Shown piece by piece: positions 2,046 to 19,960 of a stretch of DNA of 20,000 nucleotides. Both the position numbers and the translations under genes were made by a program. Source of the DNA: an uncultured virus (IMG/VR IMGVR_UViG_3300033175_000345) (lineage: Duplodnaviria > Heunggongvirae > Uroviricota > Caudoviricetes); IMG/VR virus record IMGVR_UViG_3300033175_000345. The stretch is one strand, 5' to 3'. Positions within the stretch are counted from its first letter, which is position 1; each line of letters opens with the position of its first letter. The notes beneath the pieces were generated by a model. It was not told the DNA's origin. It was given only the letters and a program-made list of their open reading frames with translations, and made no database searches.

Positions 2046-4520
2046 ATGGCCAGAAAATACGATCCGCAAGCTGGAAGCCTCTTCAGGAAGGAAGCCCCAA
2101 AGATGCCGGAGGGTTACTATTCCGGCGATCAACCGAACCCGAACCTGCGGGCGTTCGTCGAGCAGCATATCAAAGAGCGGCCATATGATCCGGAAACAGA
2201 TATCTACGAAATACAGCCAATGACTGACGAGCTTCAAGTGGAACGTTCTGAACCTGTCTATGAGATGCACAGTTATTGGTCGAAAAAGCCGCCCTCCGCC
2301 ATTGATACCTACATAAAACACTACTCTGAAGTTGGAGATGTAGTACTAGACCCATTCTGTGGTTCAGGTACTACCATGGTTTCGGCTTTACGCCTTGGCA
2401 GAAACGCTATTGGTATTGATTTAAGCCCAGCAGCGACTTTTATAGCTAGTGGATACGTTTATCCCTTTGACACAAGAGCCGTTGATCGTGCCTTCAAGAA
2501 ATTTCTCTCCGTTCTGAGCGATAAATGCGGATATCTATATGACACCCATACCTCGAAAGGCGATGAAGCCACTATTGTCTATATTCGCTGGTCATCTCGA
2601 CTTCGTTGCCCACGTTGTATGGAAATAGTCACCGTTCGAGATGCAGTTCAATCTGCGGAACGGAATAGAGTTGACGACGGTCTGGTTTGTCCAGTCTGTG
2701 CACAACGCTCTGTTATTGAACTCCTATCGTCACGCAGAGGGAAGCTACCTCCCGTTCCAGTTGAAATGCAGGTTATTACCAAAGGGACGCGCCGCAAAGA
2801 GATGGTTGCTTTTGATGGCAAAGGGCAAGATGGCAAACTCCAGATAAAGGCCGAAGGCATACGAAATGGGATAAATCGGGCGCATATTGAGATTCCTCAG
2901 AAAGCGTTAAGCCTTAGGTTGGGGGCTAATGGGTATAAGCTTGCGAAAGATGCAATCTGGCCACGTGCTTCAGTAGTACTTGATACGGCTTTGACGCTAC
3001 TTGATGAGTGGAATGATCCCATAGAAAGACACTACCTAACGTTTTTACTTTCATCTATGTTGATGAATTTTTCCGTCATGTATTCGGATAGAGATCGCGG
3101 TGGCCAACCAACACTTGGTAGGCTCTCTCCGACACCACTGGCTCGAGAAATCAATCCTCTTCTTGTTTTGAAACGTAAACATGAACGTTTGCTTAAAGGC
3201 ATTGATAGCAAGAAGTGTGAAGGGAAATGTCTCATATCTACCCAAAGCGCCACTGACTTGAGTCAGATATCTTCAAATAGTATTGATTACGTGTTCACTG
3301 ATCCTCCATATGGTGACAAGATTGATTTTTGGGAGTTGAACTTACTCTGGGAGGCATGGCTAGGCTTCAACCGAGGATGGGACAAGGAAGAGGTCATTAT
3401 CAACAAGCATCTCGACAAGGGACAAGATGAATGGTTTTCCTTGATGAAAGGTGCATTTGCGGAGATATATCGCGTCCTCAAACCAGGGCGTTGGCTATCT
3501 CTGTGTTACCACGACACCTCAGAGGGAACGTGGGAAGATGTTAAGGATATCGCCAGCGAGGTAGGTTTTATACCTGACGAGGCGGATAGCGCTGTTACAA
3601 TTGGTACAGCCGAAAGCAGAATCCATATCGCAAAACGCGAGGGGATAATTAAGCGCGATATTGTTGTTAATTTCCGTAAGCCCAAACCTGGGGAAACAAA
3701 ATCTACTATAGCCATTACCGGCAACGAAGATAAAACGACCTTTAATGAAAAGGTCCGCCAGATCATCCGCGACTATCTTGATACGAGTCCCGGTTCTACG
3801 AAAGACCGCGTTTATGACGAGGTCGTCAGCCGGATGGTTCGTACCGGCCAGATGGAGGCCCATGATTTCAACGAACTCCTCGGGCAAGTTGCAGAAGAGG
3901 CAAAGATCGAGCGCGGGAAAAATGGCGGTGGACGATGGTACCTGAAAGAGACCGAGTTGGTAATCGCCGACGCTGCCGAAAACGCACGTGAGGATTCGGC
4001 AGCCGAGAAGCTCGGAGTGTTCATCAAGGGGTTTCTCAAGAAGAACCTCGGAGACGAAGGCGTCCACTACAGCGACCTTTTCGAGCACTACATTTACGCG
4101 GTAAAGGACAAGCCGCGCCGCCAACTGGCCGAGTTCCTGCCCGACTATTTTTACAAAACCGACCAAGGAACCTGGCGACTTCCCGCCTCCGAGGAGGAGG
4201 ATAAGGCCAAGCGTGAAGCCCGGGTCAAGGGCCTGGGCCGGAGGGTGAAGCGCTACATCGCCCAGCTCGAACTGGGCGCTATCATTACTGAGCACGAAAG
4301 GCCAAACGACGCAACCATTGCCGAGTGGATACGCCACTGCAAGCGGGCCGGACTCTACGAGCAGGGCAAGCTCTTGTACGAGAAAGGTGGACTTAATCCC
4401 GACAACCTGCCCGAGGAGGCCATGGTCAACGTCGAGGAAGATTACCAGGTTTGCGCACGCATGATAGCCAGAGGCGCGGTGGATGAAAGCGGTAAGAAGC
4501 GGAAACGGAGGGGGGAATAA
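2046..4520 (+). CDS. BREX-associated amino-DNA methyltransferase (probably N6-adenine) with zinc ribbon
   Basis: HSYWSKKP, SAM-binding motif I VLDPFCGSGTT (~2349), CPRC...CPVC zinc ribbon, catalytic motif IV DYVFTDPPY (DPPY at 3300-3311), YRVLKPGR; long C-terminal extension. Confidence 0.9.
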   Translation: MARKYDPQAGSLFRKEAPKMPEGYYSGDQPNPNLRAFVEQHIKERPYDPETDIYEIQPMTDELQVERSEPVYEMHSYWSKKPPSAIDTYIKHYSEVGDVVLDPFCGSGTTMVSALRLGRNAIGIDLSPAATFIASGYVYPFDTRAVDRAFKKFLSVLSDKCGYLYDTHTSKGDEATIVYIRWSSRLRCPRCMEIVTVRDAVQSAERNRVDDGLVCPVCAQRSVIELLSSRRGKLPPVPVEMQVITKGTRRKEMVAFDGKGQDGKLQIKAEGIRNGINRAHIEIPQKALSLRLGANGYKLAKDAIWPRASVVLDTALTLLDEWNDPIERHYLTFLLSSMLMNFSVMYSDRDRGGQPTLGRLSPTPLAREINPLLVLKRKHERLLKGIDSKKCEGKCLISTQSATDLSQISSNSIDYVFTDPPYGDKIDFWELNLLWEAWLGFNRGWDKEEVIINKHLDKGQDEWFSLMKGAFAEIYRVLKPGRWLSLCYHDTSEGTWEDVKDIASEVGFIPDEADSAVTIGTAESRIHIAKREGIIKRDIVVNFRKPKPGETKSTIAITGNEDKTTFNEKVRQIIRDYLDTSPGSTKDRVYDEVVSRMVRTGQMEAHDFNELLGQVAEEAKIERGKNGGGRWYLKETELVIADAAENAREDSAAEKLGVFIKGFLKKNLGDEGVHYSDLFEHYIYAVKDKPRRQLAEFLPDYFYKTDQGTWRLPASEEEDKAKREARVKGLGRRVKRYIAQLELGAIITEHERPNDATIAEWIRHCKRAGLYEQGKLLYEKGGLNPDNLPEEAMVNVEEDYQVCARMIARGAVDESGKKRKRRGE

Positions 4521-4525
4521 CGAGG

Positions 4526-5332
4526 ATGTCGAAGTACGATCCACTGACCGCATTCCTACGGAATCGACCCCAGGAGGAAGAGAAACTCGCGCTCTCCCTG
4601 GACGAAATTGAGCGTGTCTTGGGGACTGACCTTCCCAGAACGGCAAAAATCGACCGCCCGTGGTGGGCCAATACACGCTCGAGCCTGCACGCATTAAGAT
4701 GGCTCGATGCCGGCTGGAAGGTGGATAAGGTCGACTTTAAGGCTGGCTATGTAACTTTCATCAGGACTGGTGTGGAAGCTGTCGAATCCAATATCGGCCG
4801 GAATCGTTATGAGAACTTGCAGCGTTTCTTTAAAAGCGCCCCACCACAGCAGGAACAGATCGCATTGACGTTTAAGGAGTTGGCTGCGGTATTGGGTGGA
4901 AAACTACCTGTGACGGCCTCTCACGATAGACCGTGGTGGGCCAACACAAAATCCAGCCCGCAAGGCTCTTCTTGGATGGCCGCAGGGTGGAAGGTTGAAA
5001 GGGTTTATCTCAAGGCGCAGATCGTGACTTTCAGGCGCAAGGGAGTGAACCCTCTCACAAGCATACCGCGTTACGTTGAAGGCCTCCTTAATGGTTCAAC
5101 CCATTATGGCCGCCCAACGCCGAATACCCTCGCAAGCTGGTTACGGTTTTGTAAGCGCGTGGGGTGGTATTTCGAGGCTACGGTTCTGTATGAACGGGGT
5201 GGTCTTAACACAGATATGCTCAGTGAAAGTGAATGCGCAGAGGTTGATGAGGACTATGCCGTCTGCAAGCGCGAACTGAGTCGTTACAAGGACGACACAA
5301 ATGCGATGAAGAAGAGGAATTGCCATGGCTAA
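4526..5332 (+). CDS. Hypothetical protein: two tandem 'WWAN' (DUF7662-like) domains plus a C-terminal domain shared with the upstream methyltransferase
   Basis: Two ~80 aa repeats (LPRTAKIDRPWWANT..WLDAGWKV / LPVTASHDRPWWANT..WMAAGWKV). The C-terminal segment aligns without gaps to the methyltransferase C-terminus. Starts 5 nt after the methyltransferase stop and overlaps the next gene. Confidence 0.8.
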   Translation: MSKYDPLTAFLRNRPQEEEKLALSLDEIERVLGTDLPRTAKIDRPWWANTRSSLHALRWLDAGWKVDKVDFKAGYVTFIRTGVEAVESNIGRNRYENLQRFFKSAPPQQEQIALTFKELAAVLGGKLPVTASHDRPWWANTKSSPQGSSWMAAGWKVERVYLKAQIVTFRRKGVNPLTSIPRYVEGLLNGSTHYGRPTPNTLASWLRFCKRVGWYFEATVLYERGGLNTDMLSESECAEVDEDYAVCKRELSRYKDDTNAMKKRNCHG

Positions 5333-8300
5333 TACCGACGATCTTTTTACCGCCAGACAGAACCTGGCCGAGATTTGCACGGTCCCGGACAAGATCATTT
5401 CCGTCTATTCCCTGGAAAAACACGTCTGGGCCGACTCGAACTCCGAAGCCAGCCGCAAAGCCCGCAAGCCGGAGCTGCAGACCATTGAGGAGTTTCAGAT
5501 CGATCCGGTCAGACCATTCCTCACGGATATTCTGCGCAATATGGCAGCCCCCTGGAAGCGTGACCGAAAGGATAATCCGGTTGGTCAGGGCTATTGGATT
5601 CAGGCGGAGTTCGGCTCCGGTAAATCACACCTGCTCTGCTGTCTTTCCGCATTGGCACTTGGACGGAAAGATGCATGGGACATCGTCAAAAAGAAGGAGG
5701 ACGCCTCCGGCCGCGGCAAGCGCGAGTCTCTCTACCGTTTCTGGGAGGAGGGTATCGAGGCCAAGAGCGGCAAGGGGACCAAAGGCATCTTTGTCATCGT
5801 CAAGACGCTGGTAGGAGCAGGCAGCGGCACAGTGGGTTTGACCGATAAGGGCCGGCGTCTCTCCGAGTACATTCTGGATGCGGCCAAGGATCAGATACAG
5901 GTCGAGCTCGGCAAGAACATCTCCTTGTATCCGGTGGAGCTGTTGGCTGATCGCTTCATTACTGAGGACCTGGAGCGCTACCGGAAAGACCTATCCAAAT
6001 TCCTGCGCGACCCAAAATTCTTCGACGAGGATGAATTCGAAGAGGTTGACGACTTTATCCGGACCATCCAGCAGAACAAGACCCCGGAATACAAGCGGAG
6101 CTGCGGTAACAAGCTCTGGCGCTTTTATACCGAATACCTGAAAGTCCAGCCTCAGATCGCCGCAGAGACTGAGGACATCCTCACGCACATGACGGAAACG
6201 ATCTTGGCCGAGGGGTATAGCGGGGTCCTGTTGGTGTTGGACGAGGTGTCCTTGTTCATGAAGAACCGGGACGAGGATCAGCGGACCGACGACGAAAAGA
6301 CTCTGGTCGTATTGTCCAACCGGCTGGCGAAAATCCACAACCTGCCCGTGTGGACCGTCTGCGCGGCCCAGCAGGCTATCGAAAGCAAAATGGGGGTCAA
6401 GAACATCATTGCCGATGACCGGCTGAAGCTGGTGAAGCTGCTCGAAGAGGACAAGGACTATTATGATATCGTTCTGGCGCGCGTCAGAGAAATCAAAGTC
6501 CCGGCAGCTATCAGCAATTATTACCTCCATTACAAACGAGGATTCACCTGGCCGAACAGCATCGGCGAGACGGACTTCCGCCACTTCTTCCCATTCCACA
6601 AGCCTGCCATCGAGGTGCTACGGGCCATCACGTATGAACTGACCACGACCCGCTCCGCGATCCATTTCATGCATCAGACCCTGAAGCATCAGATCAAGAA
6701 TAAGGGGCGGGAGCTCATCCGCCTATGGGAACTGTTCGACGAGGCTGTTCGGTACGAGGAGGACCCGAGTGGCGTGCATGCCGGGCTGGTGGCCATCAAA
6801 ACGAAACGGGAGACGGACTATCGGGCTTACGAGGCCTGCAAGCGCCAGATCGATGGTCTGACCAAGGGATACTTGAAGGTTCACCGCGACAAGGGCGTCA
6901 AGGTCATCCAGACCCTTTTCCTTTACCACATCGCCCGCACGCGCCAGCAGGGTATCACGCCCGAAGAGATCGCCAACTCGGTGCTCATCGAGCGGGACAC
7001 CGATGCGAATCCGGATGAAAACAACCAGCACTATGAAACCATCGCCGACAACCTCAAAAAAGAACTGCGGCAGATCGTGCAGGCTTTCGATGAGGAGAAG
7101 CGACCAAGGTACCGCTTTGATCCCGTCTTTACCGGGGTCGATCCGAGGGATGAATTCCAGAAGGCCAGAGACGAAGCGGAATCCAATGAAGCCATGCAGA
7201 AGGAGGCCTGGGACCATCTTCTAGCGCTGGATGAATGGCCCGTGCGCACCCGCCAGATGACTATAGATCTGTCCAGCGGTGTGCGGTCCACGTTCCGGGA
7301 CATCGCGCCATTTATTGCGCCGTGGGAGGACAAGGGCGCAGTCCGCTCAGGGGACCAAAACCTGGATGTGGTTTGGCAGGGACGGCAGATCACGGGGCGA
7401 GTGGGCATGCGCGATCTCGGGCGAATGTTTGCGGACAATCAGCCCTTGCCGCCAATCGAAAGCGACCAGACGGATTTTGATTTCGCTGTCTATATTGGCG
7501 CACGGCACGTCGCAGACACCTCGATTCTCAAACTGATCGAGCGGCGCAAGGACCCTCGCGTTCTTCTCTGGACTCCAGCGGAACTGACCCAGGAAGAACG
7601 TGATCGGCTCATCGATTTCGCCGCCTACCGCAAACTCATTTCCGACTGGCAAGGCAAGGAAACCGAGGATGCGGTGGCGGTGGTCAACTGGGTTTCCAAT
7701 GCGCTTCAATCCGATCTCGCCAAGATCGTGAAGATTGTGGATAACAGCTACGCCCGGGGCCGCGTGGACGCAATGAATAACACCCAAATGGAGTTCCGCG
7801 TGGCCGGCGAACTGGCGGCTATCTTAACGCCGTTGGTAGATCGGGTGCTTACCGCCGCTTATGTGTCCAGGGACATCAAGTTCGATCCGCCCTTCGTATT
7901 CCGCAAGGAGGAAGGGGTCAAAGTGATCAATGGCATCGTCAAGACAGGCCGGATTCCCAAGGGGGCGAAGCCCAATCAGAACATAAGCGCCGCGCAGAAC
8001 TTCGGCTTCGGCTTGAACATCATGAAAAAGAGCGCAGAGAAGGAGCTGGATGTTTCGGGCAACACCTATGTGCATGAAATGTGGGCTTTCGTCGATGACA
8101 AGCTGACCGACGACGGGCAAACCATGAAAATGGACACCCTTTATAAGAACTTCATGGGCATCGGGGGGCCGAAGGACTATGGGCTCACCCGGCGCATGGT
8201 TCAGCTTTACATGCTCTGCCTCGTCCGGGAAGGCCGAGTGCGAGTCACCGTGGGGGCAAAGGCCGGGCTTGCCATCCCCATGCTCGATTACTCCAACATA

Positions 8301-9668
8301 GCGGAAGTAGAGTTTTCGACCAAAGTACTGGATGCATTGGGCGAGATTCAGAAAGTAGCCAAACCCGAGAATTGGGAAGTCTTAAGACCCTATGCGGAAA
8401 AACTGCTCGGCATCGAAATCCCGTCCACTCAGGACGACGCCATTATTTCCGAACACCGGACCAAGCTGCGGCAACTGTTCGCCCAGGAAAGGGAGTCCTT
8501 CTCACGGGTAGCGAGCCGGGCTCAGAGCCTGTTTGACGCACTCAAGTCAACCAACCCGTATGAAGCGGAACTGACGCAGGTCGCGAAACTCTTTGCCGCA
8601 AACATCGAGGGCGGCGACGACATCCACCTCCTTTTGTACGCCCTCAAAGAGGCCATGGGGTATCAGGCCTTTGATACGAATATGGCGGCACCTGCCGAAG
8701 TGGATGATCTTGCCAATCGACTGAAAAACTACAAAGACATTCGGGCGTTTCTTGATTACGAGACCGAGCTCAGGACCGCTCATGCCTACTGCGCCATTAC
8801 CCTTGGGGATCAAAAAGAACTAAATGAGGCTCGAAAGTCTATCGAAACCGTCCGAACCAAGCTTGGCAACCTGAAGGACTATATTGATTCCGACGTCAAG
8901 CTGAAGACTGAACTCGTGGGACATTTCCCGCCGGTCGAGGGGGAAAAGGACACGATTGCCTCGATGATCCGAGATTACTCATCCGTATACCTGCCGATGC
9001 ACGAATCCGCGGTGAACAAAATTGATGGGAGCCGCAAGAAGATTCTGGATATCATGATGGGAGCCGATATCAAGGCCCTTGAAGTTCTTGACGGTATCAC
9101 GGCACTCCAACCCGCAAGCACGGACAAACTGATCGCCCGCCTGACTCAGCTTCGCGCAGAGGTGTTCGAGTGTCCTTCGCCTTCGCGGGCTTCCGTCGAG
9201 GATCACCTGCGCAGCGGCCCGCTACATGAATGCGGCTTGTCGTTTGTGAATGCGTCAACCCATGTGCAAACGGCAGACGGAGCCGCCAGAAAAGCCAGCC
9301 AGTTGCTCGACGAGGCGTTTCGGCGAAAGATGGATGTGTTCATGAATCCTGCGGTGCGGGAACGTCTGGAGCAGGGCAAGTCTGAGCCTGCCATCTCAGG
9401 GCTCTTGGCATGTAAGACCACCGATGAACTGCGCGCATATTTTATAAAGGCGGTCCAGGAAACGCCTGATCTTGTGGACATCATTAATAAGTACCTCAAG
9501 CGCATCGTCGTGAAGCGGGTCAGAATGGCCGATTTCAGGCCCAAAACAGGCACCATCCAAAAAGATCAGGTTGGGAATGTGGCGGAGGAATTCGGCCGCT
9601 TCCTGGAATCACAGTTCACCGGTAACGAGGGAGACGACGACTCCCTTCCAATGCTTCAGTTGGAATAG
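5325..9668 (+). CDS. brxC: BrxC/PglY-like large P-loop ATPase
   Basis: 1447 aa; Walker A variant YWIQAEFGSGKSHL, Walker B VLLVLDEVS, FPFH motif, coiled-coil-like C-terminus; directly upstream of pglZ. Confidence 0.85.
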   Translation: MANTDDLFTARQNLAEICTVPDKIISVYSLEKHVWADSNSEASRKARKPELQTIEEFQIDPVRPFLTDILRNMAAPWKRDRKDNPVGQGYWIQAEFGSGKSHLLCCLSALALGRKDAWDIVKKKEDASGRGKRESLYRFWEEGIEAKSGKGTKGIFVIVKTLVGAGSGTVGLTDKGRRLSEYILDAAKDQIQVELGKNISLYPVELLADRFITEDLERYRKDLSKFLRDPKFFDEDEFEEVDDFIRTIQQNKTPEYKRSCGNKLWRFYTEYLKVQPQIAAETEDILTHMTETILAEGYSGVLLVLDEVSLFMKNRDEDQRTDDEKTLVVLSNRLAKIHNLPVWTVCAAQQAIESKMGVKNIIADDRLKLVKLLEEDKDYYDIVLARVREIKVPAAISNYYLHYKRGFTWPNSIGETDFRHFFPFHKPAIEVLRAITYELTTTRSAIHFMHQTLKHQIKNKGRELIRLWELFDEAVRYEEDPSGVHAGLVAIKTKRETDYRAYEACKRQIDGLTKGYLKVHRDKGVKVIQTLFLYHIARTRQQGITPEEIANSVLIERDTDANPDENNQHYETIADNLKKELRQIVQAFDEEKRPRYRFDPVFTGVDPRDEFQKARDEAESNEAMQKEAWDHLLALDEWPVRTRQMTIDLSSGVRSTFRDIAPFIAPWEDKGAVRSGDQNLDVVWQGRQITGRVGMRDLGRMFADNQPLPPIESDQTDFDFAVYIGARHVADTSILKLIERRKDPRVLLWTPAELTQEERDRLIDFAAYRKLISDWQGKETEDAVAVVNWVSNALQSDLAKIVKIVDNSYARGRVDAMNNTQMEFRVAGELAAILTPLVDRVLTAAYVSRDIKFDPPFVFRKEEGVKVINGIVKTGRIPKGAKPNQNISAAQNFGFGLNIMKKSAEKELDVSGNTYVHEMWAFVDDKLTDDGQTMKMDTLYKNFMGIGGPKDYGLTRRMVQLYMLCLVREGRVRVTVGAKAGLAIPMLDYSNIAEVEFSTKVLDALGEIQKVAKPENWEVLRPYAEKLLGIEIPSTQDDAIISEHRTKLRQLFAQERESFSRVASRAQSLFDALKSTNPYEAELTQVAKLFAANIEGGDDIHLLLYALKEAMGYQAFDTNMAAPAEVDDLANRLKNYKDIRAFLDYETELRTAHAYCAITLGDQKELNEARKSIETVRTKLGNLKDYIDSDVKLKTELVGHFPPVEGEKDTIASMIRDYSSVYLPMHESAVNKIDGSRKKILDIMMGADIKALEVLDGITALQPASTDKLIARLTQLRAEVFECPSPSRASVEDHLRSGPLHECGLSFVNASTHVQTADGAARKASQLLDEAFRRKMDVFMNPAVRERLEQGKSEPAISGLLACKTTDELRAYFIKAVQETPDLVDIINKYLKRIVVKRVRMADFRPKTGTIQKDQVGNVAEEFGRFLESQFTGNEGDDDSLPMLQLE

Positions 9669-9680
9669 GAGGCTGCGTCG

Positions 9681-12590
9681 ATGCTTTCAAGCTGGGTCAT
9701 CGAAAAATTGGAGGCATTGAAGGATGAGCAAATTCTGCTTGTCCAGGATTCGCTTCGTCTTCTTCCTGAAGCCGACGGTGCTGTCCACCGGTTCGCAAAC
9801 GAGAGCGGCTTCACGGTAATTATCGCCTCCACAAATCTCGTTTTCAGGGAGCTCTTTGAAAAGGCAACCGTTTCAAAAGAGACAAAGAAGCTGCTCCTTA
9901 TAGATCGTGCTCCGGCCCGAAGGAGGGCCCATGCGTCCCTGACAAAAGCGCCTCCCCCCTTCTATCCGGATCTTCTTGCCAGAACAGCGGATACAGCGCG
10001 GATCGACATTAGCCTTCGGCAGTTTCTGATCGAAAAGACCGGGGACCCCAACTGGCCTCAAGAGGCGAATGATCCGCGGTTTGCGAGACTTATCACGGGC
10101 TCTATCGACGCTGTGCTGAAGGCACATGCGAGCCTGCGGGTTGCTCATCCAACCAGGTTCACGGATCACGATTTCAAGACCATTGTTGCCTATTCGGCAT
10201 TGGGCGTTCCCGAAGCGGCTTTCAAGCGGCCTGAGGCAAGAATCTACTGGCGTATCGCACTTATCGGGTATCCGGCTCTCGAAGAGCTCGATTCACTTGC
10301 CCCGGAAGTGGCGCGTTCCATCCGTGACGAACTGCGTAGCGCCCCGGCTCCATTCTGCTGGTTTGCAGACTCGCCGCCGGAGCTGATTGTCAGGGCTTTC
10401 TATCTCTCGACGATATTGTCCCAGCACATTGAGCACTGGAAGCTCCTGCTGACAAGCGTTGATCCGGACCTCAAGGCCTTCAGCGAGATGGATACATCGT
10501 TAATTGGCGAGGCCGCACCCGAACTTGTGTCGATTGATCCCCATAGGGCTGACCGTGACCTTCTGGAAGTCGAGGCGTCGCTTTCCAAGGACATGCTCAA
10601 CCTTATCCTTCTCGACCAACTGAAACTTATCACGAACGGACGCTTTGCAGAGGTTATCGAGAGCGAGCATTATTCCGTCCTTATTCGTTCCTTGGCCCTT
10701 TTAGTTGGTCTGGACAGTCTACTTTCCGACACCCCGCCCCTCGCTGACCACGAGAAACTATGTCAGGTGCTGTTTGCGGAAGCAGATGGCAAAAAAGACC
10801 TGTTTATCGAACAGAGACCATCGCAAGCCTGGGAGAACCTAAAGGCGGGATATCGTCTGGTGCGATCAATACGCGACATCCGGGATGCCTTGGATGTCGC
10901 CGTCAAGAATCTGAGCGTGAAACCAGTCTCTGAGTTGACTTTCAAGTGGTTCCGAGCCTTATGGAATGATCGTCGTGTCAACCGCTTGGAGTTCTATCTG
11001 TCTGCTCTGGAGCGACTGGTGTTTAGTATGGATTTTCTCCCGCGTGCGGCGAACGACCTGCCACCAGCGTTCCTGGCAGCACAGGAACGGATTAGAGAAC
11101 GCGTAGGCTTGCTGAGGGACGAGATTCAAAAGACGCTTTCAGTTTTGAATGTCCGATACCAGGAACTGGTGGTCGCACAATACAAATCATGGGTTGCTTC
11201 GGATTCACCGGAAGTAAGGTTGACCAGCCAGTTTTTGCGGCGCTGCGTAAAGCCCAATTGGGACCCACAAAGCGAGAAGGCAGTGGTGTTTGTGTTCGAC
11301 GGCATGCGTTACGACATATGGGACGAGTTGGTCAGGCCCATTTTTGAGGATCGCATGGAGATCATCGCGGATTACCCGGCCACGTCCCTCTTACCTTCAG
11401 AAACTCATATCAGCAGAAAGGCCATTTTTGCGGGGACCTTTCCCGAGTCTTTCGACACTAAACGCGGCGAGGACGCTCTGCTTAAGGAGGCTATGCAACG
11501 AGAATTCGGGTATGCCGGAGATGTTGAAGTCGTGGCCCCCGATGGCATGGGAACAGGCGAGACCGTTCGATATCGCGCAGGCAATATCGATTTTTTCATA
11601 TTCGAACTTTGTGACAAGGAGCTCCATAAGATTCCCGTGAAAACGCTCCCCGATGGACGGTGCGTTCCTGGCCGCCCGCTGGCGTTCATCTATCAGCAGC
11701 ATATCAAGGACATCATCGACACCGAGGTTATGGCCATTATTCGTGGCCTAGCACCCGATACCAAGGTGTTTGTAGTTGCCGACCATGGATTTGGAGCTAT
11801 CGGTCGCGAGCGCATTCGGATTGACCTTCATTGGCTGAATGAACCGTTTGATTGTTTTTATCTGAACGCATGGCTCAGGCAGACACTCGGCAGCGTGGGC
11901 GCGCCTCGAAAGGTGCGCGATAACGTCTTGGAGTTTCCGGTCGGTGATCTGCGGATGCCTGATTCGGGAGAGGCGTATGACCGAGCCACGAAACAGAGTT
12001 GGCAGAAAAAGTTTGAATCGATCATTTTTCCCAAAACGGGCTATGCCTTGGCTCGGCCAAAGGCCAACTTCAATCCTGATGCATATTCGCACGGCGGGAT
12101 TTCGATCCAGGAAATGCTTGTGCCGATGCTTGCTATGCGAGTGAAAACGCCGGAGGAAGGCTTGCTGGTCCTTGGTTCAATTGCCGGGCCTGCGGAACTC
12201 ATTGAAGGGGAAGAAGCCGAGTTTAAGATGCCGGTTGAACTTACCGAATCTCATAAACATAGGGAGCTTCGAATAGAGGTACAAGCCGTCTATCAGAACA
12301 AGGAATCAACACCAGCCCTGTCTTCATTAGTTCAATATGTTGCTGCCGCGGGAGGAGAAGTCGTCTTCCGGTTTGTACCTGATGCGACCGACGCTTCGGA
12401 CGAAGAACGCAAAACAGGCATTATGGAGAGGACGCTGAGGATCAGCGTTACCTATCGTGAGGCGCAGCGAATGGTGAGAAAGGCGCGATCCATTCGCTTC
12501 TCTATGCGCCTGAATTCTGAAAAGATCGTCCGCCGCGTACCAGCGCATCTTGGCAAAATACTAGGCTTGACGCCAAGGAGCATGAAGTGA
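9681..12590 (+). CDS. pglZ: PglZ alkaline-phosphatase-superfamily protein
   Basis: [34 protein letters not shown] and [14 protein letters not shown] are PglZ-domain motifs; RBS AGGAGG upstream. Confidence 0.93.
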
Positions 12591-12684
12591 TGCCGGATTT
12601 CAAAACGTCACCCAAATCGACATGCCCGGCATGCTACCGAAAATCGCTCCTGGCGCTTCTTATGTCGTGGGTGGAGGACTGCGG

Positions 12685-14727
12685 ATGAACCTAAAGCTCA
12701 AAGAGGTCTTCAGAGGCAAGGTCGTCAACAAGGCTCATACGATTAACACGGGTGTTGACGAGTTTCCTCGCTATGTTCTGGAGTACCTTATCGACAACTA
12801 CTGCTCCGAGGATACCTTCCATGAGGACATGGAAAAGGTCGTCAGAAGGTTGAAAGAGACTTTTGTCTACGGGGCGGAGGCTGAGAAGATCAGGCATTAC
12901 ATCCGGGAAAACCGCAGCCATTCCGTGATCGCAAGTCTGGAGGCTCGACTGGTAGAAACGGAGGATAAGTATTGGGGGACGATTTCCGCCATCAACGAGA
13001 ATTTTGTAAACATACCGGAGAGCATCGTCCGTCAATATCCCATGCTTCTCTCGGGCGGGATGTGGGGCACTATCGACCTGACTTATGACGAGACAGAAAT
13101 ACACAATAAAAAAATCAGGCCCTTCAAAATCACAGCATTTACGCCCTTTCAGGTGAGCGTTATCAATCTGGATGAGTTCATAGAACGTCGAAGGGAGTTT
13201 TCCACTGACGAGTGGATCGATGTTTTGGTGAATTCCTGTGGCCTGGACCCGGAGGGGATGACCCGGCGACAGAAGTTGCTCTACCTATGCCGCTGCATTC
13301 CCCTCGTGGAAACCAACGTCAACATGGTGGAACTCGCACCTCGGGAAACCGGCAAGACGTATCTTTATCGTAATATCTCATATTACGCCCATGTGCTATC
13401 TGGCGGCAAAGCAACTCCAGCCCAGCTTTTCATTAATCTGAATAACGGAAGGATTGGCGAGGTCGGTGTTCGGGATGCCGTTGTGTTCGATGAGATCGCA
13501 AATACCGATTTCACGGACCCCAGGTCTTTCGTAAGTATTATGCAGGGGTACATGCAAGACGCCAAATTCAGCAGAGGGAAGAAAGAAATTCTTGCCTTCG
13601 CCAGTTTGGTGTTCGTGGGCAACCTGGACGTCCAGGGAGACCTGCCCCACGAGAAATACTATCACCTCTTTGAGCCGCTACCCGATTTCCTGCAGGTGAT
13701 TGCGTTTTTGGACCGAATCCATGGCTACCTGCCTGGTTGGGAAATCCCGAAATTGGCACCCAACAGTTACTCGAAAGATTATGGGTTCATCACGGATTAT
13801 TTTTGCGAAATCATGCACGAGCTCCGGCGCGTTGACCTGCTGGGCGCGGTTCGCTCGCGCTTTGAAGTAGTGGATCACGCTCGAAGGGCGCACGGTGTCT
13901 CGGGCCGAGACCAACGGGCTGTGATGAAGACCACATCGGGATTACTGAAGCTGCTTCATCCTGACGGTCAAGTTTCCGACGAGGGACTTCAAGATATCCT
14001 CAGTTTGTCATGCGAACTGCGTCAACGGGTACGAGACCAGCTCCATCTGATTGCGCCTGGCGAGTATGACCGTATTTCTTTAGGAGCCCTGATGCGGCCG
14101 TCGGGTAAGCAAGTTGTGCCTGAGCTTCCTGATAGTAATCGTGTTCAGCGAGTTGCACTTCCTGAGAAGCCTTCCGTGGGTGAGGTCATAGGCTTGGCTG
14201 TCGAAGGGGACCACGGTTGCATCTTGCATTTTGAGATGCAGGCGACCAAGGGGTCCGGACGCATTGTGCCGCTCGGATCGATCCAGAGGGTTATGAGGGA
14301 AAGCATCGAGGCGGCAGCTCAATACATCCGTGCGAAGCATGAGGACCTCGGGATAACTGCCGAATGGCGAAAGAGTTTTGATGTTGCGGTCTTGGCGACC
14401 TTCATGGGCGTGCCCAAGGAAGGGTCGTCCGCCGGCATCACAATCGTTGCCGGGATTGTGTCGGCCTTGAAAAAGGTCCCCGTGCGAAATGACCTCGCCA
14501 TGACCGGGGAGATTACGATCATGGGGAAGGTTCTCCCGGTGGGTGGCATTCAACAGAAGGTCAGGGCTGCCTACGATGCCGGAGTCAAGGAGGTTCTTTT
14601 GCCTGCTGATAATTTGAAGGAGGCGGAGGGATTACCCGCCTACGTGCTCGACGGTATCAAGCTGACGCCGGTAAGTAGTATTGACGAGGTGATCGAGATG
14701 TCCTTAGTGAACACCAATGCGAAATGA
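12685..14727 (+). CDS. brxL: BrxL: AAA+ ATPase with Lon-type protease C-terminal domain
   Basis: [20 protein letters not shown] (Walker A), VVFDEI (Walker B), [29 protein letters not shown], Lon-like PKEGSSAG...[20 protein letters not shown]. Start placed at ATG 12685 after GGAGGA rather than 12622. Confidence 0.93.
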
Positions 14728-14768: not shown

Positions 14769-15716
14769 ATGACTGCTGAGAATCACAATAAACCAGTGCC
14801 TCACATGAAAGACCTGAACTATCCAGGGCTTTTTCAAGGTGCTGATACCGCTGCTGCATCGGCCCAAAAGACCTTTTTCTTGTTACAGCGGATATATCTT
14901 GGCTCCCTTATCGTGGGCGGATTGACTGGCATGCTCACATCATTATTCACAGGCAGTGCACTCATATGGACATATACTGCGATGGCCATAGTTTTGGCCA
15001 TGGGACTTCTAACGTTATGGATTGGTCGCTCTCGTCAAGATGACAATGCTTGGTTCGATTGCCGTGCGATTGCCGAGTCCGTTAAGACGGCAACATGGCG
15101 ATATATGATGATTGCCCCTCCTTTCCAAGGCCTAGACTCAATTGATCAGCATTTCATTTCAGAACTGCAGGAAATCAGGAACGCAAGGCCGGAGTGCCAA
15201 AAGTATTTGGCAGGGATATCTGTCGTCAGCAACCCTGCTATTACTGATTTAATGCGTGAAGTTAGAGGGGATACGTTTGAAAATCGCAAATTGTTCTATA
15301 TCGAGCAAAGGCTATGTGACCAAAAGGTCTGGTACTCTCGCAATGCCGAGATGAACGCACGTAGAGGTAATCGATGGTTTTGGGGAACAGCGTGCCTACA
15401 ATGTGTTGCCGTTGTCGTGGCCATCGTCCAAGCATCAACAGGAGGGTTGGGATTCAATATGGTCCCGGTGCTTACAACCTGTGCTGCAGTTGTGGCTGCT
15501 TGGAGCCAGATGAAGCGTCACGATGAATTGAAGAAGACATATGCTCTTGCGGCACAGGAACTCAGTGAGTTGGAGGCCATAGCTAGTAATTTGGTCATCG
15601 AGAGCGAATTCCCTCAGCTCGTTGAGCAGGTAGAGGAGGCCATCTCGCGAGAACATACCATGTGGTGTGCTCGTAGGGATGTTCCGCTTCGCAGAGCTGG
15701 CTCTGGAGCGCGGTAG
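14769..15716 (+). CDS. SLATT-family (DUF4231-like) tandem 2TM+2TM membrane effector
   Basis: Two pairs of hydrophobic helices; motifs WFDCRAIAESVKTATWRYMM, YIEQRLCDQKVWY, YALAAQEL and VEQVEEAISREHTMW typical of double-SLATT effectors. Confidence 0.85.
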   Translation: MTAENHNKPVPHMKDLNYPGLFQGADTAAASAQKTFFLLQRIYLGSLIVGGLTGMLTSLFTGSALIWTYTAMAIVLAMGLLTLWIGRSRQDDNAWFDCRAIAESVKTATWRYMMIAPPFQGLDSIDQHFISELQEIRNARPECQKYLAGISVVSNPAITDLMREVRGDTFENRKLFYIEQRLCDQKVWYSRNAEMNARRGNRWFWGTACLQCVAVVVAIVQASTGGLGFNMVPVLTTCAAVVAAWSQMKRHDELKKTYALAAQELSELEAIASNLVIESEFPQLVEQVEEAISREHTMWCARRDVPLRRAGSGAR

Positions 15717-15727
15717 AGGAAAGCGAG

Positions 15728-16699
15728 ATGACAGTTCAAAGAAAACATACACTTGGCTTGGCGGGAACTACAGTACAGTTGCCCTGCTTTTTCCCATCCG
15801 TATCGAGTGTTAAAACGAATTTGCTGCCAGTTGATTACGTTGAGCTTTTGGCTGCTTCTGCCTATCCCCTGTTCCTTGTTTCTGCATATGACATCGCAAG
15901 TTCCGCGCCAGAACATCAGGAGCGTATTGATCGTGCCACCAAACAAAGCCGATCTGAGGGATCAGTCGTTTTGCTGGACAGTGGCAATTATGAGAGCTTT
16001 TGGAAAGGTGCCCCTGATTGGCGGGCGGAGACATTCCATAAAATTTCAAGCACGTATGAGTACGATATAGGCTTTTGTTTTGATAATCAGGTTCCCCCCA
16101 CCACCGCGAAGGCAATTTCTGAAGATGTTGTTAGGGGTGTTCTTCGAGACCAGGAACGCTCATCAAGCACGATAGTGCCAATCGTACATGGCCCCACCGA
16201 CTTATTGCCCGAGGCCGCGCAGATGGTTGCAGGGCAGCTTTACCCGGTACTTTTGGCAGTTCCCGAGCGTGCCTTGGGGGATGGCATCTTGGCACGAGCG
16301 CGTTCTGTCCGAAAGATCCGACAAGCGCTTGATCAATTAGGTTTTTATTGTCCGTTACATCTACTGGGCACAGGGAACCCAATTTCGATAATTGCATACT
16401 CAATCGCTGGAGCAGATAGTTTCGATGGCCTGGAGTGGTGCCAAACAGTGGTTGATCACGAGACGGCATTCCTATTTCACTTTCAACACTGGGATTTCGT
16501 CCGGGGGCAAACTGATTGGGGTTCACATGGCACACTGCCGTATATTCAATCTGCACTGATGCATAATCTTGATTTTTATGCCTCTTTCATGCGGAAGCTT
16601 CAGGAATCAATAGGATGTTGTAATCCTCATGGGATTATGAAGGCTTTCCTTCCTGGGACACGTGGCGAAATTATCCTCAATTCCCTTGAGGGGGTGTGA
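15728..16699 (+). CDS. tRNA-guanine transglycosylase (TGT)-like protein, Cap10-like
   Basis: LPCFFPSVS, LLDSGNYES (cf. DSGGF), FCFD, IVPIVHG, LHLLGTGNP, GADSFD and HNL indicate a TGT barrel; lacks the CxCxxC zinc site of bacterial Tgt. Confidence 0.8.
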   Translation: MTVQRKHTLGLAGTTVQLPCFFPSVSSVKTNLLPVDYVELLAASAYPLFLVSAYDIASSAPEHQERIDRATKQSRSEGSVVLLDSGNYESFWKGAPDWRAETFHKISSTYEYDIGFCFDNQVPPTTAKAISEDVVRGVLRDQERSSSTIVPIVHGPTDLLPEAAQMVAGQLYPVLLAVPERALGDGILARARSVRKIRQALDQLGFYCPLHLLGTGNPISIIAYSIAGADSFDGLEWCQTVVDHETAFLFHFQHWDFVRGQTDWGSHGTLPYIQSALMHNLDFYASFMRKLQESIGCCNPHGIMKAFLPGTRGEIILNSLEGV

Positions 16700-17439
16700 A
16701 TAGCAATATGGTGGCTCAAGTGGTTAATCTTTCTCGACTGGAGAGGGCAATCCAAGAAGTATGTATGTGCCTTAAGGACAAAAGCGAGCAGAGGCTTGAA
16801 TGGACGACCCTTAGCGAGGATCAGTTATGGCGTGAGCTTGTAGCTTGCATTTTGGGAAGCCGGGTCCGATATGGTGTTGCCTACTCAGCTATTGAGCGTA
16901 TGGAAAAGGCCAACTTGTTATCGCCGAGTCATGCCATCACAAGGCGGCATGAATACGAACAGCATGTCTTAAACATATTGATGGAACAGGGAGGTTCGGA
17001 AAATGCCCACGATGTAAAAAGCCGCTATCCCTTTCCTTGGTTACGAGCTGGTCAAGTTAGCGCGGCCGCTGAAACACTCTATTCCTGTGGTGGAACAATA
17101 AAAAGCCGCCTTGAAATGGCAAAGGACGAACGTGAGGCGCGCCGTCAATTGGCTAAGAGTGTTTCAGGACTTGGCCCCAAACAAGCGAGCCTCTTTCTGC
17201 GCAATATCGGATACACGGCCCAGGTTGCTGTTCTCGATGTACACGTTCTTACTTACATGGCATGGGTGGGATTGACTGCAGCACCTGTTAAGACCGTTCG
17301 AACAATACGGCAATATGAGGTGCTTGAAGACACATTTATTAAGCATTCATGTTCTTCTGGTTTCCCCCCAGATCGCTTTGATCTAGCGGTCTGGGTGGTT
17401 GTGCGAGTGATCAAGAGGGATTACGCGTCATGTCAATAG
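16696..17439 (+). CDS. 8-oxoguanine DNA glycosylase/lyase (OGG, HhH superfamily)-like protein, Cap11-like
   Basis: ELVACILGS and VSGLGPKQASLFLRNIG...VAVLDVHVL match the archaeal-type Ogg HhH motif with Lys and Asp retained; GTG start overlaps the TGT stop (GTGA). Confidence 0.85.
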   Translation: MNSNMVAQVVNLSRLERAIQEVCMCLKDKSEQRLEWTTLSEDQLWRELVACILGSRVRYGVAYSAIERMEKANLLSPSHAITRRHEYEQHVLNILMEQGGSENAHDVKSRYPFPWLRAGQVSAAAETLYSCGGTIKSRLEMAKDEREARRQLAKSVSGLGPKQASLFLRNIGYTAQVAVLDVHVLTYMAWVGLTAAPVKTVRTIRQYEVLEDTFIKHSCSSGFPPDRFDLAVWVVVRVIKRDYASCQ

Positions 17440-18026
17440 TGACCCTTGTTTCTGGCGGAATTGACTCTACCCTAATGAGTTTGATGGCTCACGAGGAAGG
17501 CATTGTCATAAACCCTCTGTTTGTAGATTACGGTCAACTCAGTTCAAATAGGGAATGGAATGCCTGCGAGCAATTGCATGAAAGATATGGATTGCCATTG
17601 GTTAAGCGAATGGATGTCTCCGGTTTCGGCAGGATTGTACCAAGCGGTATTACCGATCCCACCATGCGTATAAACGAAGACGCGTTCCTGCCAGGACGGA
17701 ACCTTCTTTTATTGCTTTGCGGCGCTGCCTACGCTTACAGTGTACAAGCGGATGGCGTGGCAATAGGTTTGCTCAATCCTGAAGATTGTCTATTCCCGGA
17801 TCAGACGCTTGATTTTCTTCGCAAAACCGAAGACATGATCGAGACAGCCATGAAAAAGCGAATTACAGTGCTCGCGCCTTTAATAGAGTTCACGAAGGCA
17901 GATATTCTGTCACTGGCGACAGCGCGTGGGTTACAAGATACGTACTCCTGCCACGCCGGGGGGAATGAGCCCTGCGGGAAATGCGTGGCATGTATTGAGA
18001 TTGCAAATGCAAAGGAAAGGAGCTGA
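17430..18026 (+). CDS. queC: QueC-family (7-cyano-7-deazaguanine synthase-like) PP-loop ATPase, Cap9/QatC-like
   Basis: PP-loop LVSGGIDST, DYGQ, LPGRN, KADI and zinc site TYSC-x7-CGKCVAC. Confidence 0.92.
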   Translation: MSIVTLVSGGIDSTLMSLMAHEEGIVINPLFVDYGQLSSNREWNACEQLHERYGLPLVKRMDVSGFGRIVPSGITDPTMRINEDAFLPGRNLLLLLCGAAYAYSVQADGVAIGLLNPEDCLFPDQTLDFLRKTEDMIETAMKKRITVLAPLIEFTKADILSLATARGLQDTYSCHAGGNEPCGKCVACIEIANAKERS

Positions 18027-18029
18027 AAG

Positions 18030-18536
18030 ATGGGTGGAGGTGGCGGAGGCGGCCGCGGACTGACTCCCAGCGAGCTTCAACAGTTGGAGCAAAAGGCCAA
18101 AGAATCTCTGAAGACAAGTGGCGACGCGAGTAAATGCAACGTGTTCATTAGCTTTGCGGCCGAAGACTTGACAGACGTCAATATGCTTCGAGCGCAGGCA
18201 AAAAATGAAAATTCGGATATTGAATTCAACGACTGGTCATTGAAAAAGCCCTTCGACAGCAAGGATGCTGAATATGTAAAGCGAGGCATACGTGAGCGTA
18301 TTCGGCAATGCTCGGTCACTGTCGTATACATATCCGAGAAGACTGCAGACAGCAAATGGGTTAATTGGGAAATCCGTGAGACAATTGCTTTGGGCAAAGG
18401 CGTGGTGGCTATGTATAAAGGCGATAGACCTCCTTCTCGTTTGCCTAAGGCTATTTCCGAGAACAAGGTGCCTGTAGTACCTTGGAACCAAAAGGCATTG
18501 GCTGTAGCGATAAAGACTCAGGCGCAGAAAAAATAG
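18030..18536 (+). CDS. TIR-domain protein (MTH538/DUF1863, ThsB-like) with N-terminal poly-glycine
   Basis: NVFISF, IRERIRQCSVTVVYIS and SKWVNWEI (catalytic Glu retained); N-terminus MGGGGGGGRG; 3 nt after the queC stop. Confidence 0.9.
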   Translation: MGGGGGGGRGLTPSELQQLEQKAKESLKTSGDASKCNVFISFAAEDLTDVNMLRAQAKNENSDIEFNDWSLKKPFDSKDAEYVKRGIRERIRQCSVTVVYISEKTADSKWVNWEIRETIALGKGVVAMYKGDRPPSRLPKAISENKVPVVPWNQKALAVAIKTQAQKK

Positions 18537-18576
18537 TTAGCCGCGCTTTGAAGTAAAAAGGCGAACGTCCAAAGAT

Positions 18577-18915
18577 ATGATCCAGGATTTGGAACAGATT
18601 GAGTATCGCCGGGGTATGCTCGAAAAGGGCATGAAACCTGACGATCTTCCAGTAAAAATATGGCGTGGAGCCAGAATTCCTGTGGTTATACGCACCGCGA
18701 TCAATACTGAGGGCTTGCTTAATCTCGGTGGCGTTTACGGGGACAAGAAGGCCGGCGATCCGGTGGAATACGACAACCTCAAGCTGGCCCTGACCGACGA
18801 CACTGTCGAGATCACGGTTTTCAACCGCGGGATCGCTCTCTTTATGTCTGACGACGAACGAATCCGTCGAATACACCGGGTGCTGTGCAAACTCGATGGA
18901 ACGGGGAAAGATTGA
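18577..18915 (+). CDS. Hypothetical protein
   Basis: 112 aa ORF; TGATG stop/start coupling to the next gene; no family recognised. Confidence 0.65.
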   Translation: MIQDLEQIEYRRGMLEKGMKPDDLPVKIWRGARIPVVIRTAINTEGLLNLGGVYGDKKAGDPVEYDNLKLALTDDTVEITVFNRGIALFMSDDERIRRIHRVLCKLDGTGKD

Positions 18916-19562
18916 TGGCCGGCTCAAGGGCAAGCGCGGAGAAGGTAACATGGTCAGGCCGTGTCATGGCTATTCAGCCTCGCATACGGCTCATACGTTC
19001 CTTTGATGAGCGGTCCCACAACTACTTTGGGTATGTGCTTTGCATCGACGGAACTCGCGGCGGGGAGGCCGGCGAGTTCCTGATTGCGGTCGGTGAAGCT
19101 GCACACGAAAAACACCGGTTTCAGACAGGCATGGAACTGAGCGGTTACTCCGTGCCGGCCGAAGACCCGCGCAAGGAGACGGCGGCGATCTACAAGACGA
19201 GCGGGCTCAAGGTCGTCAGGAATGCCGAGGGTGAAACTCCTGCCGGGCCGCCCTTCCTTGGAGTGCCTCCGAACCTGGCAACCTACCGCAGCCGTGGGCA
19301 TCGCCGTCTGGACGCCCGGACTTACGATACCAAATGCACGACTTGTAATTGGGGCTGCCGGATGCCGGTGGAGATGACCATCGACCAGTGGAATCCGTCA
19401 AAGAAACAGTACCGGTTCGAAACCTTCTGTTACGGCCCGAAAAGCTGCACTTTTTATCGGCCCGGACCCGCGCGGAAAGTTCCGGGACGCAAGGGCATGT
19501 CCTACACCGAGGAAGATTGGGTCGACGAGGACGCCACTGCCCATCGGGGCCCGGATGATTGA
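18915..19562 (+). CDS. Hypothetical Cys-cluster protein
   Basis: 215 aa from ATG 18915, which overlaps the upstream stop; CTTCNWGC and CYGPKSC motifs; GC-rich codon usage. Confidence 0.7.
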   Translation: MAGSRASAEKVTWSGRVMAIQPRIRLIRSFDERSHNYFGYVLCIDGTRGGEAGEFLIAVGEAAHEKHRFQTGMELSGYSVPAEDPRKETAAIYKTSGLKVVRNAEGETPAGPPFLGVPPNLATYRSRGHRRLDARTYDTKCTTCNWGCRMPVEMTIDQWNPSKKQYRFETFCYGPKSCTFYRPGPARKVPGRKGMSYTEEDWVDEDATAHRGPDD

Positions 19563-19645: not shown

Positions 19646-19672
19646 AGTCGGCCTGCGGAAAGAGGTTGATCT

Positions 19673-19726
19673 TTGCGACAGGTTTGCGACACAACTTGCG
19701 ACAGACTCAAAACTCGACTTGCGACA
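19673..19726 (+). repeat. Four 8-bp direct repeats TTGCGACA
   Basis: Exact copies start at 19673, 19684, 19696 and 19719 (spacing 11, 12 and 23 bp). Confidence 0.85.
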
Positions 19727-19812
19727 TCACCCTTTGGTAGGGTAAATGAGGAAGTGGAATTGCCAGGGCTTCCGGCCTACCGGAGGCCACATGCTCTTTG
19801 ATAGGTTATAGA

Positions 19813-19903
19813 TTCACAACGGTTTTCGGTTAACAGCCGGAGAAGGAGAACCGTTATGAAAAGGGTTGCACATGGGGAGCCAACAACGAATGCAACCCTC
19901 TTC
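19813..19903. repeat. Two adjacent, slightly overlapping inverted repeats
   Basis: TTCACAACGGTTTTC/GAGAACCGTTATGAA (19813-19860) and GAAAAGGGTTGCA/TGCAACCCTCTTC (19858-19903). Confidence 0.65.
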
Positions 19904-19924: not shown

Positions 19925-19960
19925 GAGCCCCGCATCACCGATGTGGGGTTTCGTTTTTCT
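19925..19960 (+). terminator. Probable intrinsic terminator
   Basis: GAGCCCCGCATC-ACC-GATGTGGGGTTT stem (with G-U pairs) followed by CGTTTTTCT. Confidence 0.55.

Follow-up and report, generated by a model that had tools for sequence, protein, structure and literature searches.

What is the function of an operon that combines the accessory genes of a type IV cyclic oligonucleotide-based antiphage signalling system (CBASS) with a TIR gene in the place of a cGAS/DncV-like nucleotidyltransferase (CD-NTase) gene, and does it represent a new immune system? The question was raised by a five-gene locus at positions 14769–18536 of the plus strand of a stretch of 20,000 nucleotides (nt) from an uncultured virus (IMG/VR record IMGVR_UViG_3300033175_000345); this whole stretch is called the window below. 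A first-pass annotation had proposed that the locus is a hybrid of Thoeris and type IV CBASS and a candidate for a new system. We consider it likely that the operon encodes an anti-phage system of the Thoeris type, in which a SLATT protein is the effector and the TIR protein would be primed by N-terminal deazaguanylation, a form of control in the style of type IV CBASS. The mechanistic part of the hybrid proposal was favoured by synteny, by a glycine tail on the TIR protein, by the absence of a CD-NTase from the related loci scanned and by a model of a Cap10–TIR complex. The proposed novelty did not hold: some Thoeris operons that carry cap9, cap10 and cap11 are already presented in a preprint (Yirmiya et al., December 2025, bioRxiv 10.64898/2025.12.03.692087, Fig. 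6G). The kind of system is thus in print, and the window operon is a further example of it rather than a new system.

The SLATT-TGT-OGG-QueC-TIR operon was confirmed by the listing of open reading frames (ORFs) and by Pfam, with exactly the coordinates given in the first-pass annotation (Table 1). Five tightly packed ORFs encode, in this order, a double-SLATT protein, a Cap10-like TGT, a Cap11-like OGG, a Cap9-like QueC and a ThsB-type TIR protein. The first and last junctions are gaps of 11 and 3 nt, respectively; at the second and third, neighbouring ORFs overlap by 4 and 10 nt. PADLOC, run as that annotation had suggested, recognised the TGT, QueC and ThsB proteins and gave no matches for the SLATT and OGG proteins. 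The claim that the window holds no CD-NTase was upheld for the 14 window ORFs scanned, none of which matched the CD-NTase/SMODS family (PF18144); the scope of this result is the window, the rest of the genome being beyond the scan. The three proteins of "metabolic" families all scored below their NCBIfam equivalog cut-offs (QueC 115 versus 150.3 bits, TgtA 23 versus 350 bits, N-glycosylase/DNA lyase 85.6 versus 183 bits), which indicates diverged paralogues and not housekeeping enzymes.

Table 1. Features of the operon and of its surroundings in the window (aa, amino acids; HhH, helix-hairpin-helix).
Feature	Coordinates	Strand	Length	Evidence or remark
Predicted effector (double SLATT)	14769–15716	+	315 aa	Pfam SLATT_3 2.9e-32 and SLATT_1 2.7e-33
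Cap10-like TGT-family protein	15728–16699	+	323 aa	Pfam TGT 4.4e-07; PADLOC TGT 1.2e-22
Cap11-like OGG (Ogg2/HhH) glycosylase homologue	16696–17439	+	247 aa	GTG start; Pfam Ogg-HhH 6.2e-23
Cap9-like QueC-family ligase, predicted	17430–18026	+	198 aa	Pfam QueC 7.8e-37; PADLOC QueC 1.7e-29
ThsB-type TIR protein	18030–18536	+	168 aa	Pfam ThsB_TIR 1.1e-23; PADLOC ThsB 3.2e-19
N-terminal tail of the TIR protein	18030–18059	+		Predicted acceptor of a 7-deazaguanine adduct at Gly2 after Met removal
Shine-Dalgarno-like AAAGGAG	18016–18022	+		7 nt 5' of the TIR ATG; overlaps the end of cap9 (stop 18024–18026)
BREX-like cluster directly upstream	2046–14727	+		Pfam, PADLOC
PglXI-like methylase	2046–4520	+		Pfam, PADLOC
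BrxC-like ATPase	5325–9668	+		Pfam, PADLOC
PglZ	9681–12590	+		
BrxL	12622–14727	+		
Two ORFs after the TIR gene	18577–19562	+	112 aa; about 213–225 aa	The second is Cys-rich

The N-terminus of the TIR protein is the decisive feature of the locus, and its Gly2 is the predicted acceptor of deazaguanylation. In type IV CBASS, Cap9 attaches 7-amido-7-deazaguanine (NDG) to Gly2 of the CD-NTase CdnD, and Cap10 takes the NDG-tagged tail into its TGT pocket (Wassarman et al., bioRxiv 10.1101/2025.04.06.647259). According to the same preprint, an M(G/S)G(G/S)GG start is universal on type IV CD-NTases, and defence is lost upon deletion of the tail or a G2D substitution. The window TIR protein starts with MGGGGGGGRG, which fits this motif, but on a TIR rather than on a CD-NTase. 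The tail is followed by an N-terminal helix (about residues 12–30) and a TIR core with an invariant W110-x2-W113-E114. The best solved relative was BcTir (8fz9, 1.8e-13), and E114 aligned with the Glu in WTEYE of the AbTIR-type chain 7uxr.

Conservation of the tail was assessed at several depths. M1, G3, W110, W113 and E114 were invariant in an alignment of 38 TIR sequences, and G4–G8 were nearly so. The strict M(G/S)G(G/S)GG motif was present in 108, and an MG start in 117, of the 120 closest among 1473 homologues (73–99% identity, 166–184 aa). Further out, among 638 matching representatives of 50%-identity clusters (E ≤ 0.001), 41 of the best 150 had an MG start. Within the related genome loci described below, 21 of 22 TIR proteins that adjoin cap9 and whose 5' end was available carried the tail; the exception, in locus L016, is accompanied by frame-broken cap10 and cap11. 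None of the eight other TIR ORFs of those same loci had it. The glycine codons of the tail vary synonymously from locus to locus, indicating selection at the protein level. The AGGAG core of the Shine-Dalgarno-like site was kept in seven of eight aligned loci and shifted in the remaining one (L023).

Judged from alignments, the catalytic residues of all operon enzymes are present, namely the Cap10 His/Asp pair, the Cap9 PP-loop and zinc cysteines, the Cap11 Lys/Asp pair and the TIR E114. The Pfam TGT match of the Cap10-like protein was weak (29.7 bits with a cut-off of 26.3). Its sole sequence match in the PDB was Cap10 (9ntn, 3.8e-07, or 7.4e-12 with the family profile). Its AlphaFold2 model had a predicted local distance difference test score (pLDDT) of 93.5, and the top Foldseek match of this model was again 9ntn (E 1.5e-14, TM 0.68–0.71), with bacterial and archaeal TGTs just behind. 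H211 and D233 aligned with the catalytic H226 and D248 of the Rhizobiales Cap10 and were invariant in 37 family members; D84-S85 and D119 were invariant or nearly so across the family. The Cap11-like protein aligned to archaeal and bacterial Ogg enzymes (3fhg, 1.6e-09; 3n0u, 2.3e-08), and its K162 (GLGPKQAS) and D181 (LDVH) matched Lys and Asp positions in these enzymes, which we take to be those of the Ogg2 catalytic pair.

The Cap9-like protein matched solved Cap9 (9nto, 2.3e-13) and QueC (2pg3, 1.2e-14) about equally well. It possesses a PP-loop SGGIDS (residues 8–13), YGQ(x)5E, GRN and a four-Cys SCH(x)6CGKCVAC, to be compared with the SGGxDS, YxQ(x)5E, RN and four-Cys motifs listed for Cap9 (PMC13082051). 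Residues 122–126 (window 17793–17807) read FPDQT, whereas the corresponding motif is YPDC in QueC and YxDC in Cap9 of type IV CBASS; the D-Q-T core was common to all 23 aligned members of the TIR-linked Cap9 clade. In the predicted effector, SLATT_3 spans residues 19–174 and SLATT_1 residues 177–299 (NCBIfam 3.2e-38 and 1.4e-32, respectively), with hydrophobic blocks at about 42–88 and 202–245 in the hydropathy profile. Comparison of this protein with solved structures yielded a chance-level match only.

A complex of the Cap10-like and TIR proteins was modelled from a 37-row and a 38-row alignment, respectively; these alignments were our own, and calibration of the scores is therefore only rough. 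The predicted complex reached interaction prediction scores from aligned errors (ipSAE) of 0.71, 0.85 and 0.88 in separate runs (median 0.85), with 0.03 for the best control. For comparison, 116 of 157 solved complexes attain the pass mark applied, as do two of 215 mismatched pairs. Contact agreement in the Cap10–TIR runs was at least 55% and partner pLDDT at least 75. The confident interface of the 1:1 model comprised TIR residues 6–11 (end of the tail), 15–27 (N-terminal helix) and 82–95. The partner of Cap10 in the solved Cap10–CdnD complex has another fold, so that the pass does not amount to simple recall of that interface. We regard the model as support for binding of the TIR by the Cap10-like protein, not as proof.

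The gene order of the operon recurs in 22 genome loci and in metagenome loci, far beyond chance. A TIR-seeded scan of genome contigs gave 23 loci, in metagenome-assembled genomes (MAGs) labelled with many different phyla. The TIR was conserved beside queC throughout: cap9 lay directly upstream of the TIR gene, preceded by cap11, in 22 of 22 loci reaching that far, and cap10 preceded cap11 in 21 of 21 loci with sufficient contig. A Cap10-seeded scan of metagenomes was confined to the best 80 of 326 relatives (42–100% identity). Not all of these are independent, as some nearly duplicate one another or the window (L034, L093). In this set, Cap11 came next wherever the contig was long enough (73 of 73 loci), and a TIR followed cap9 in 54 of 54; all 54 TIR proteins start with Met-Gly, 41 of them with the strict motif. 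Of the 59 metagenome loci that extend far enough, 48 have a long SLATT gene immediately before cap10.

Conserved neighbourhoods of QueC, TGT, OGG and TIR without a CD-NTase, for which the first-pass annotation had proposed a search, were therefore found in genomes and metagenomes alike. No CD-NTase was detected in the neighbouring ORFs scanned, 0/87 for the TIR-seeded and 0/96 for the Cap10-seeded loci (0/183 for 103 related loci), and the idea that homologous loci always carry one is not borne out. The 87 ORFs comprised 83 of 116 unassigned ORFs (the 33 outermost were left out) and four long Cap10 ORFs; the 96 were one long Cap10 ORF and 95 of 110 further ORFs with a length of 180 aa or more, after 15 that looked like duplicates from sibling loci had been set aside. 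Since the Cap10-seeded scan kept the nearest relatives only, the kinship of TIR-linked and CD-NTase-linked modules lies outside its reach.

The type of effector adjoining the core varied. The commonest was the long double-SLATT protein; elsewhere, short DUF4231/SLATT, TPR-S/MAP3K_TRAF_bd, TPR-S plus trypsin, or patatin proteins were found. The TIR stays 50–100% identical across loci while the effector type changes. Swapped effectors around a fixed core are what a signal generator that works with interchangeable effectors would be expected to show.

Several variants of the layout were observed among the relatives. A diverged branch has a Cap10 of about 485 aa (L022:4286-5743, L023:2254-3702, L024:850-2325 and L025:4296-5750). 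Pfam TIR_2 is fused N-terminally to this long Cap10 in L022, L023 and L025, and L024 gave a weak TGT match only. All four loci also have a separate Gly-tailed TIR after cap9, and TPR-S, trypsin or patatin-type neighbours replace SLATT in them. Six genome loci (L004, L005, L006, L010, L011 and L019) and 21 of the 80 metagenome loci (e.g., L054:3563-3961) contain a second short ThsB-like TIR that lacks the Gly tail (start MAKxKIFISY) and in most cases sits after the SLATT gene and before cap10; it is absent from the window. In one further locus, an IS21-type element (IstB-like ATPase and rve/Mu-type transposase, L113:5172-7459) splits cap11 into 4725–5117 and 7552–7923.

The mechanism that we propose for the operon would begin with the loss of Met1 from the TIR protein, exposing Gly2. 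The Cap9-like protein would then join 7-carboxy-7-deazaguanine to the TIR N-terminus through an amide at the expense of ATP, giving an NDG-tagged TIR. The Cap10-like protein would grip the TIR by its tagged tail and by its N-terminal helix, holding or priming it, and may use the His/Asp pair to move the base onto some target together with the TIR; the Cap11-like OGG homologue would oppose or reset this step. Upon infection, the TIR would turn NAD+ into a cyclic ADP-ribose (cADPR)-type signal via E114. A precedent is type VII Thoeris, where a ThsB with a SLATT effector makes canonical cADPR on infection (Yirmiya et al., bioRxiv 10.64898/2025.12.03.692087). The double-SLATT membrane protein would take up the signal, oligomerise and breach the membrane, and infection would be aborted.

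It is conceivable, though we think it rather unlikely, that deazaguanylation is itself the sensing step. Cap10 would in that case swap the NDG base together with the TIR into phage or host nucleic acid in place of guanine, the tethered TIRs would cluster and switch on, and Cap11 would excise the adduct. This version fits the occurrence of Cap11, which is obligatory in the TIR clade (73/73 relatives) and optional in CBASS, where about one third of type IV operons have it (bioRxiv 10.1101/2025.04.06.647259). The TIR–Cap10 fusions and the extra untailed TIRs of sister loci would fit a relay in which a tethered seed recruits further TIRs.

A number of observations weigh against a SLATT-coupled Thoeris primed by deazaguanylation. 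None of queD, queE and folE was found among the window ORFs scanned, so that the window does not itself account for the deazaguanine precursor. With FPDQT in place of YxDC, the substrate of the Cap9-like protein could differ from that of Cap9. The sequence alignment of the Cap10-like protein to 9ntn covers residues 169–240 only (the C-terminal third), even with the profile. The nucleobase-reading D73, S74, D122 and K154 of Cap10 fall outside the aligned stretch and have no residue-by-residue mapping, and at a position where one might look for a Lys, the Cap10-like family has an invariant His (H154). The 1:1 model shows no confident contacts for TIR residues 2–5, which would be expected in the Cap10 pocket. 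BcTir is described in a preprint abstract as being without NADase activity, with a partner protein making the cADPR isomer. The 315-aa double-SLATT protein, which PADLOC did not match, was likened to ThsH by domain description and not by sequence. Finally, the limitations given by Yirmiya et al. allow that the TIR of unverified Thoeris types may be an effector that depletes NAD+.

That last point favours the alternative that survives best, in which the TIR is the executioner: freed or activated by Cap9, Cap10 and Cap11, it would deplete NAD+ itself, and the SLATT protein would be a second effector or a helper. Many defence systems use a TIR as NADase effector (bioRxiv 10.64898/2025.12.03.692087), and Pfam, PADLOC and NCBIfam name no signal-binding domain in the SLATT protein. 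However, the best family matches of the window TIR were the ThsB models of Pfam and PADLOC, the conserved TIR is accompanied in different loci by an effector of the SLATT, TPR-S, trypsin or patatin type, and SLATT-linked ThsB proteins were shown to make cADPR on infection (same preprint). We consider an executioner TIR unlikely.

A second alternative holds that two independent systems are interleaved, a plain ThsB and SLATT Thoeris and a Dpd-like set of QueC, TGT and OGG that would introduce a 7-deazaguanine into DNA or tRNA, perhaps together with BREX (bacteriophage exclusion). Relatives of TGT and QueC do modify nucleic acids, and the cassette sits directly after BrxL, with relatives often embedded in BREX-like clusters. 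However, the QueC, TGT and OGG genes always lie between effector and TIR in a fixed order, the Gly tail is restricted to the cap9-adjacent TIR, and the Cap10–TIR model passes its controls. Furthermore, all three proteins are below the equivalog cut-offs, the window ORFs scanned held no DpdB/C-like genes in addition to lacking queD, queE and folE, and the cassette also occurs without BREX, e.g., in L003. Interleaving is accordingly very improbable, and Dpd-like DNA modification was rejected on account of the gene order, the tail, the complex model and the sub-cut-off scores. A decayed type IV CBASS that lost its CD-NTase and has an unrelated TIR alongside is effectively refuted. Cap9, Cap10 and Cap11 are indeed the accessory set of type IV CBASS (bioRxiv 10.1101/2025.04.06.647259), but none of the 183 neighbouring ORFs scanned in 103 related loci is a CD-NTase, the slot after cap9 is filled by a TIR in every genome and metagenome locus counted above, and all genes are undamaged and keep their catalytic residues.

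We compared the operon with described systems. Our literature search found this layout in the Yirmiya preprint alone, and no experimental test of an architecture with TIR, Cap9, Cap10 and Cap11 was found. The preprint describes its cap9–cap11 Thoeris from sequence. Compared by text description, the likeness lies in a TIR, an effector and cap9, cap10 and cap11 within one operon. The TIR is predicted to bind Cap10 in both cases: their AlphaFold 3 models gave ThsB an interface predicted template modelling score (ipTM) of 0.79 with Cap10 and 0.62 with Cap9, as for a CD-NTase (Fig. S10B), and the ipSAE here was 0.85. The passages of that preprint on these operons are silent on the Gly tail, universal Cap11, fixed gene order and BREX embedding seen here. 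In the parts of a review (PMC13434031) and of a QueC-family preprint (PMC13082051) that deal with Cap9, it is discussed only with CD-NTases.

Type IV CBASS resembles the window operon in its Cap9-, Cap10- and Cap11-like genes, in the Cap10 His/Asp pair, in a membrane effector and in a signalling enzyme that begins with M(G/S)G(G/S)GG; the difference is that this enzyme is a CD-NTase (CdnD) there and a TIR here (Wassarman et al., bioRxiv 10.1101/2025.04.06.647259; Science 389:1347). Type VII Thoeris (ThsB and ThsH) likewise pairs a ThsB-type TIR with a SLATT-domain membrane protein, but as described it is a two-gene operon without cap genes. QatABCD also has a QueC-family enzyme, QatC, which acts on the N-terminal glycine of its partner QatB (PMC13082051). 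QatC is, however, about 400 aa long with remodelled motifs, whereas the window QueC has 198 aa and matches the PADLOC QatC only at 0.007 (residues 3–64), and the operon has no QatA ATPase or QatD (TatD) nuclease. The Cap2/Cap3 machinery of type II CBASS and Thoeris is comparable as an accessory conjugation machine whose substrate is a tail at one end of the signalling enzyme; its chemistry is ubiquitin-like and at the C-terminus, in contrast to the nucleobase chemistry predicted at the N-terminus here.

If deazaguanylation of the TIR is indeed how this Thoeris is controlled, N-terminal nucleobase tagging would be a portable control module on unrelated immune signal synthases, cGAS-like or TIR, much as Cap2/Cap3 serve CBASS as well as Thoeris. 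This TIR clade lends itself very well to such a test: its protein has 168 aa, is extremely conserved, always occurs with Cap11 and has a clean Gly7 tail, and the related loci lie in MAGs labelled with many phyla. These traits could help to find the transfer target of Cap10 and the role of Cap11, both of which are left open for type IV CBASS (bioRxiv 10.1101/2025.04.06.647259). For the window itself, the value is mainly in annotation, as a second defence system in a variable slot after BREX.

The genomic setting pointed to mobility of the cassette. The G+C content of the cassette was 48–50%, compared to 51–57% in the flanks. The nearest genome compared (G001) shares BrxL at 98% up to window position 14711, then diverges and is without the cassette, and similarity resumes only at a repeated element (19701–19886). 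Its slot after BrxL (L033, G001:C1:1682000-1689600) holds an AAA ATPase, an 868-aa S8 subtilase, DuOB and two DUF488 proteins, and looks like a variable site for defence cargo. Lacking the cassette, G001 is uninformative on a CD-NTase in the window's own genome. A Hydrogenedentales-labelled MAG (L003) contains window positions 14787–19560 at 84.5% nt identity in another neighbourhood. Taken together, the G+C contrast, the different cargo of G001 and the other neighbourhood in L003 mark the cassette as mobile DNA that was inserted into a variable slot behind BREX.

Among the relatives, the cassette was repeatedly found within or right after BREX-like clusters, L003 being an example without BREX. 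BrxL lay directly upstream in L039, L041 and L086, and a DUF499 (BrxC-type) ATPase was upstream in L035, L038, L047, L090 and L106. In L043 and L068, a methylase was located upstream and PglZ downstream of the cassette.

The two ORFs that follow the TIR gene probably do not belong to the core system. They had no Pfam, PADLOC or NCBIfam matches and only unnamed clusters in Atlas. The pair accompanied the operon in the closest relatives only, namely in one of 23 genome loci (L003) and in four of 80 metagenome loci (L034–L036 and L093). Its G+C content is 56%, compared to 49% for the operon, and it lies inside the 84.5% block common to L003. Scans of the window for tRNA genes and Rfam families were empty, and a promoter and terminator scan gave scores no better than those of shuffles. 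Positions 19649–19886 match several places in G001 (72–96% identity, some with tandem-like spacing) and represent a dispersed repeat. A strong terminator-like hairpin was seen at 19925–19951.

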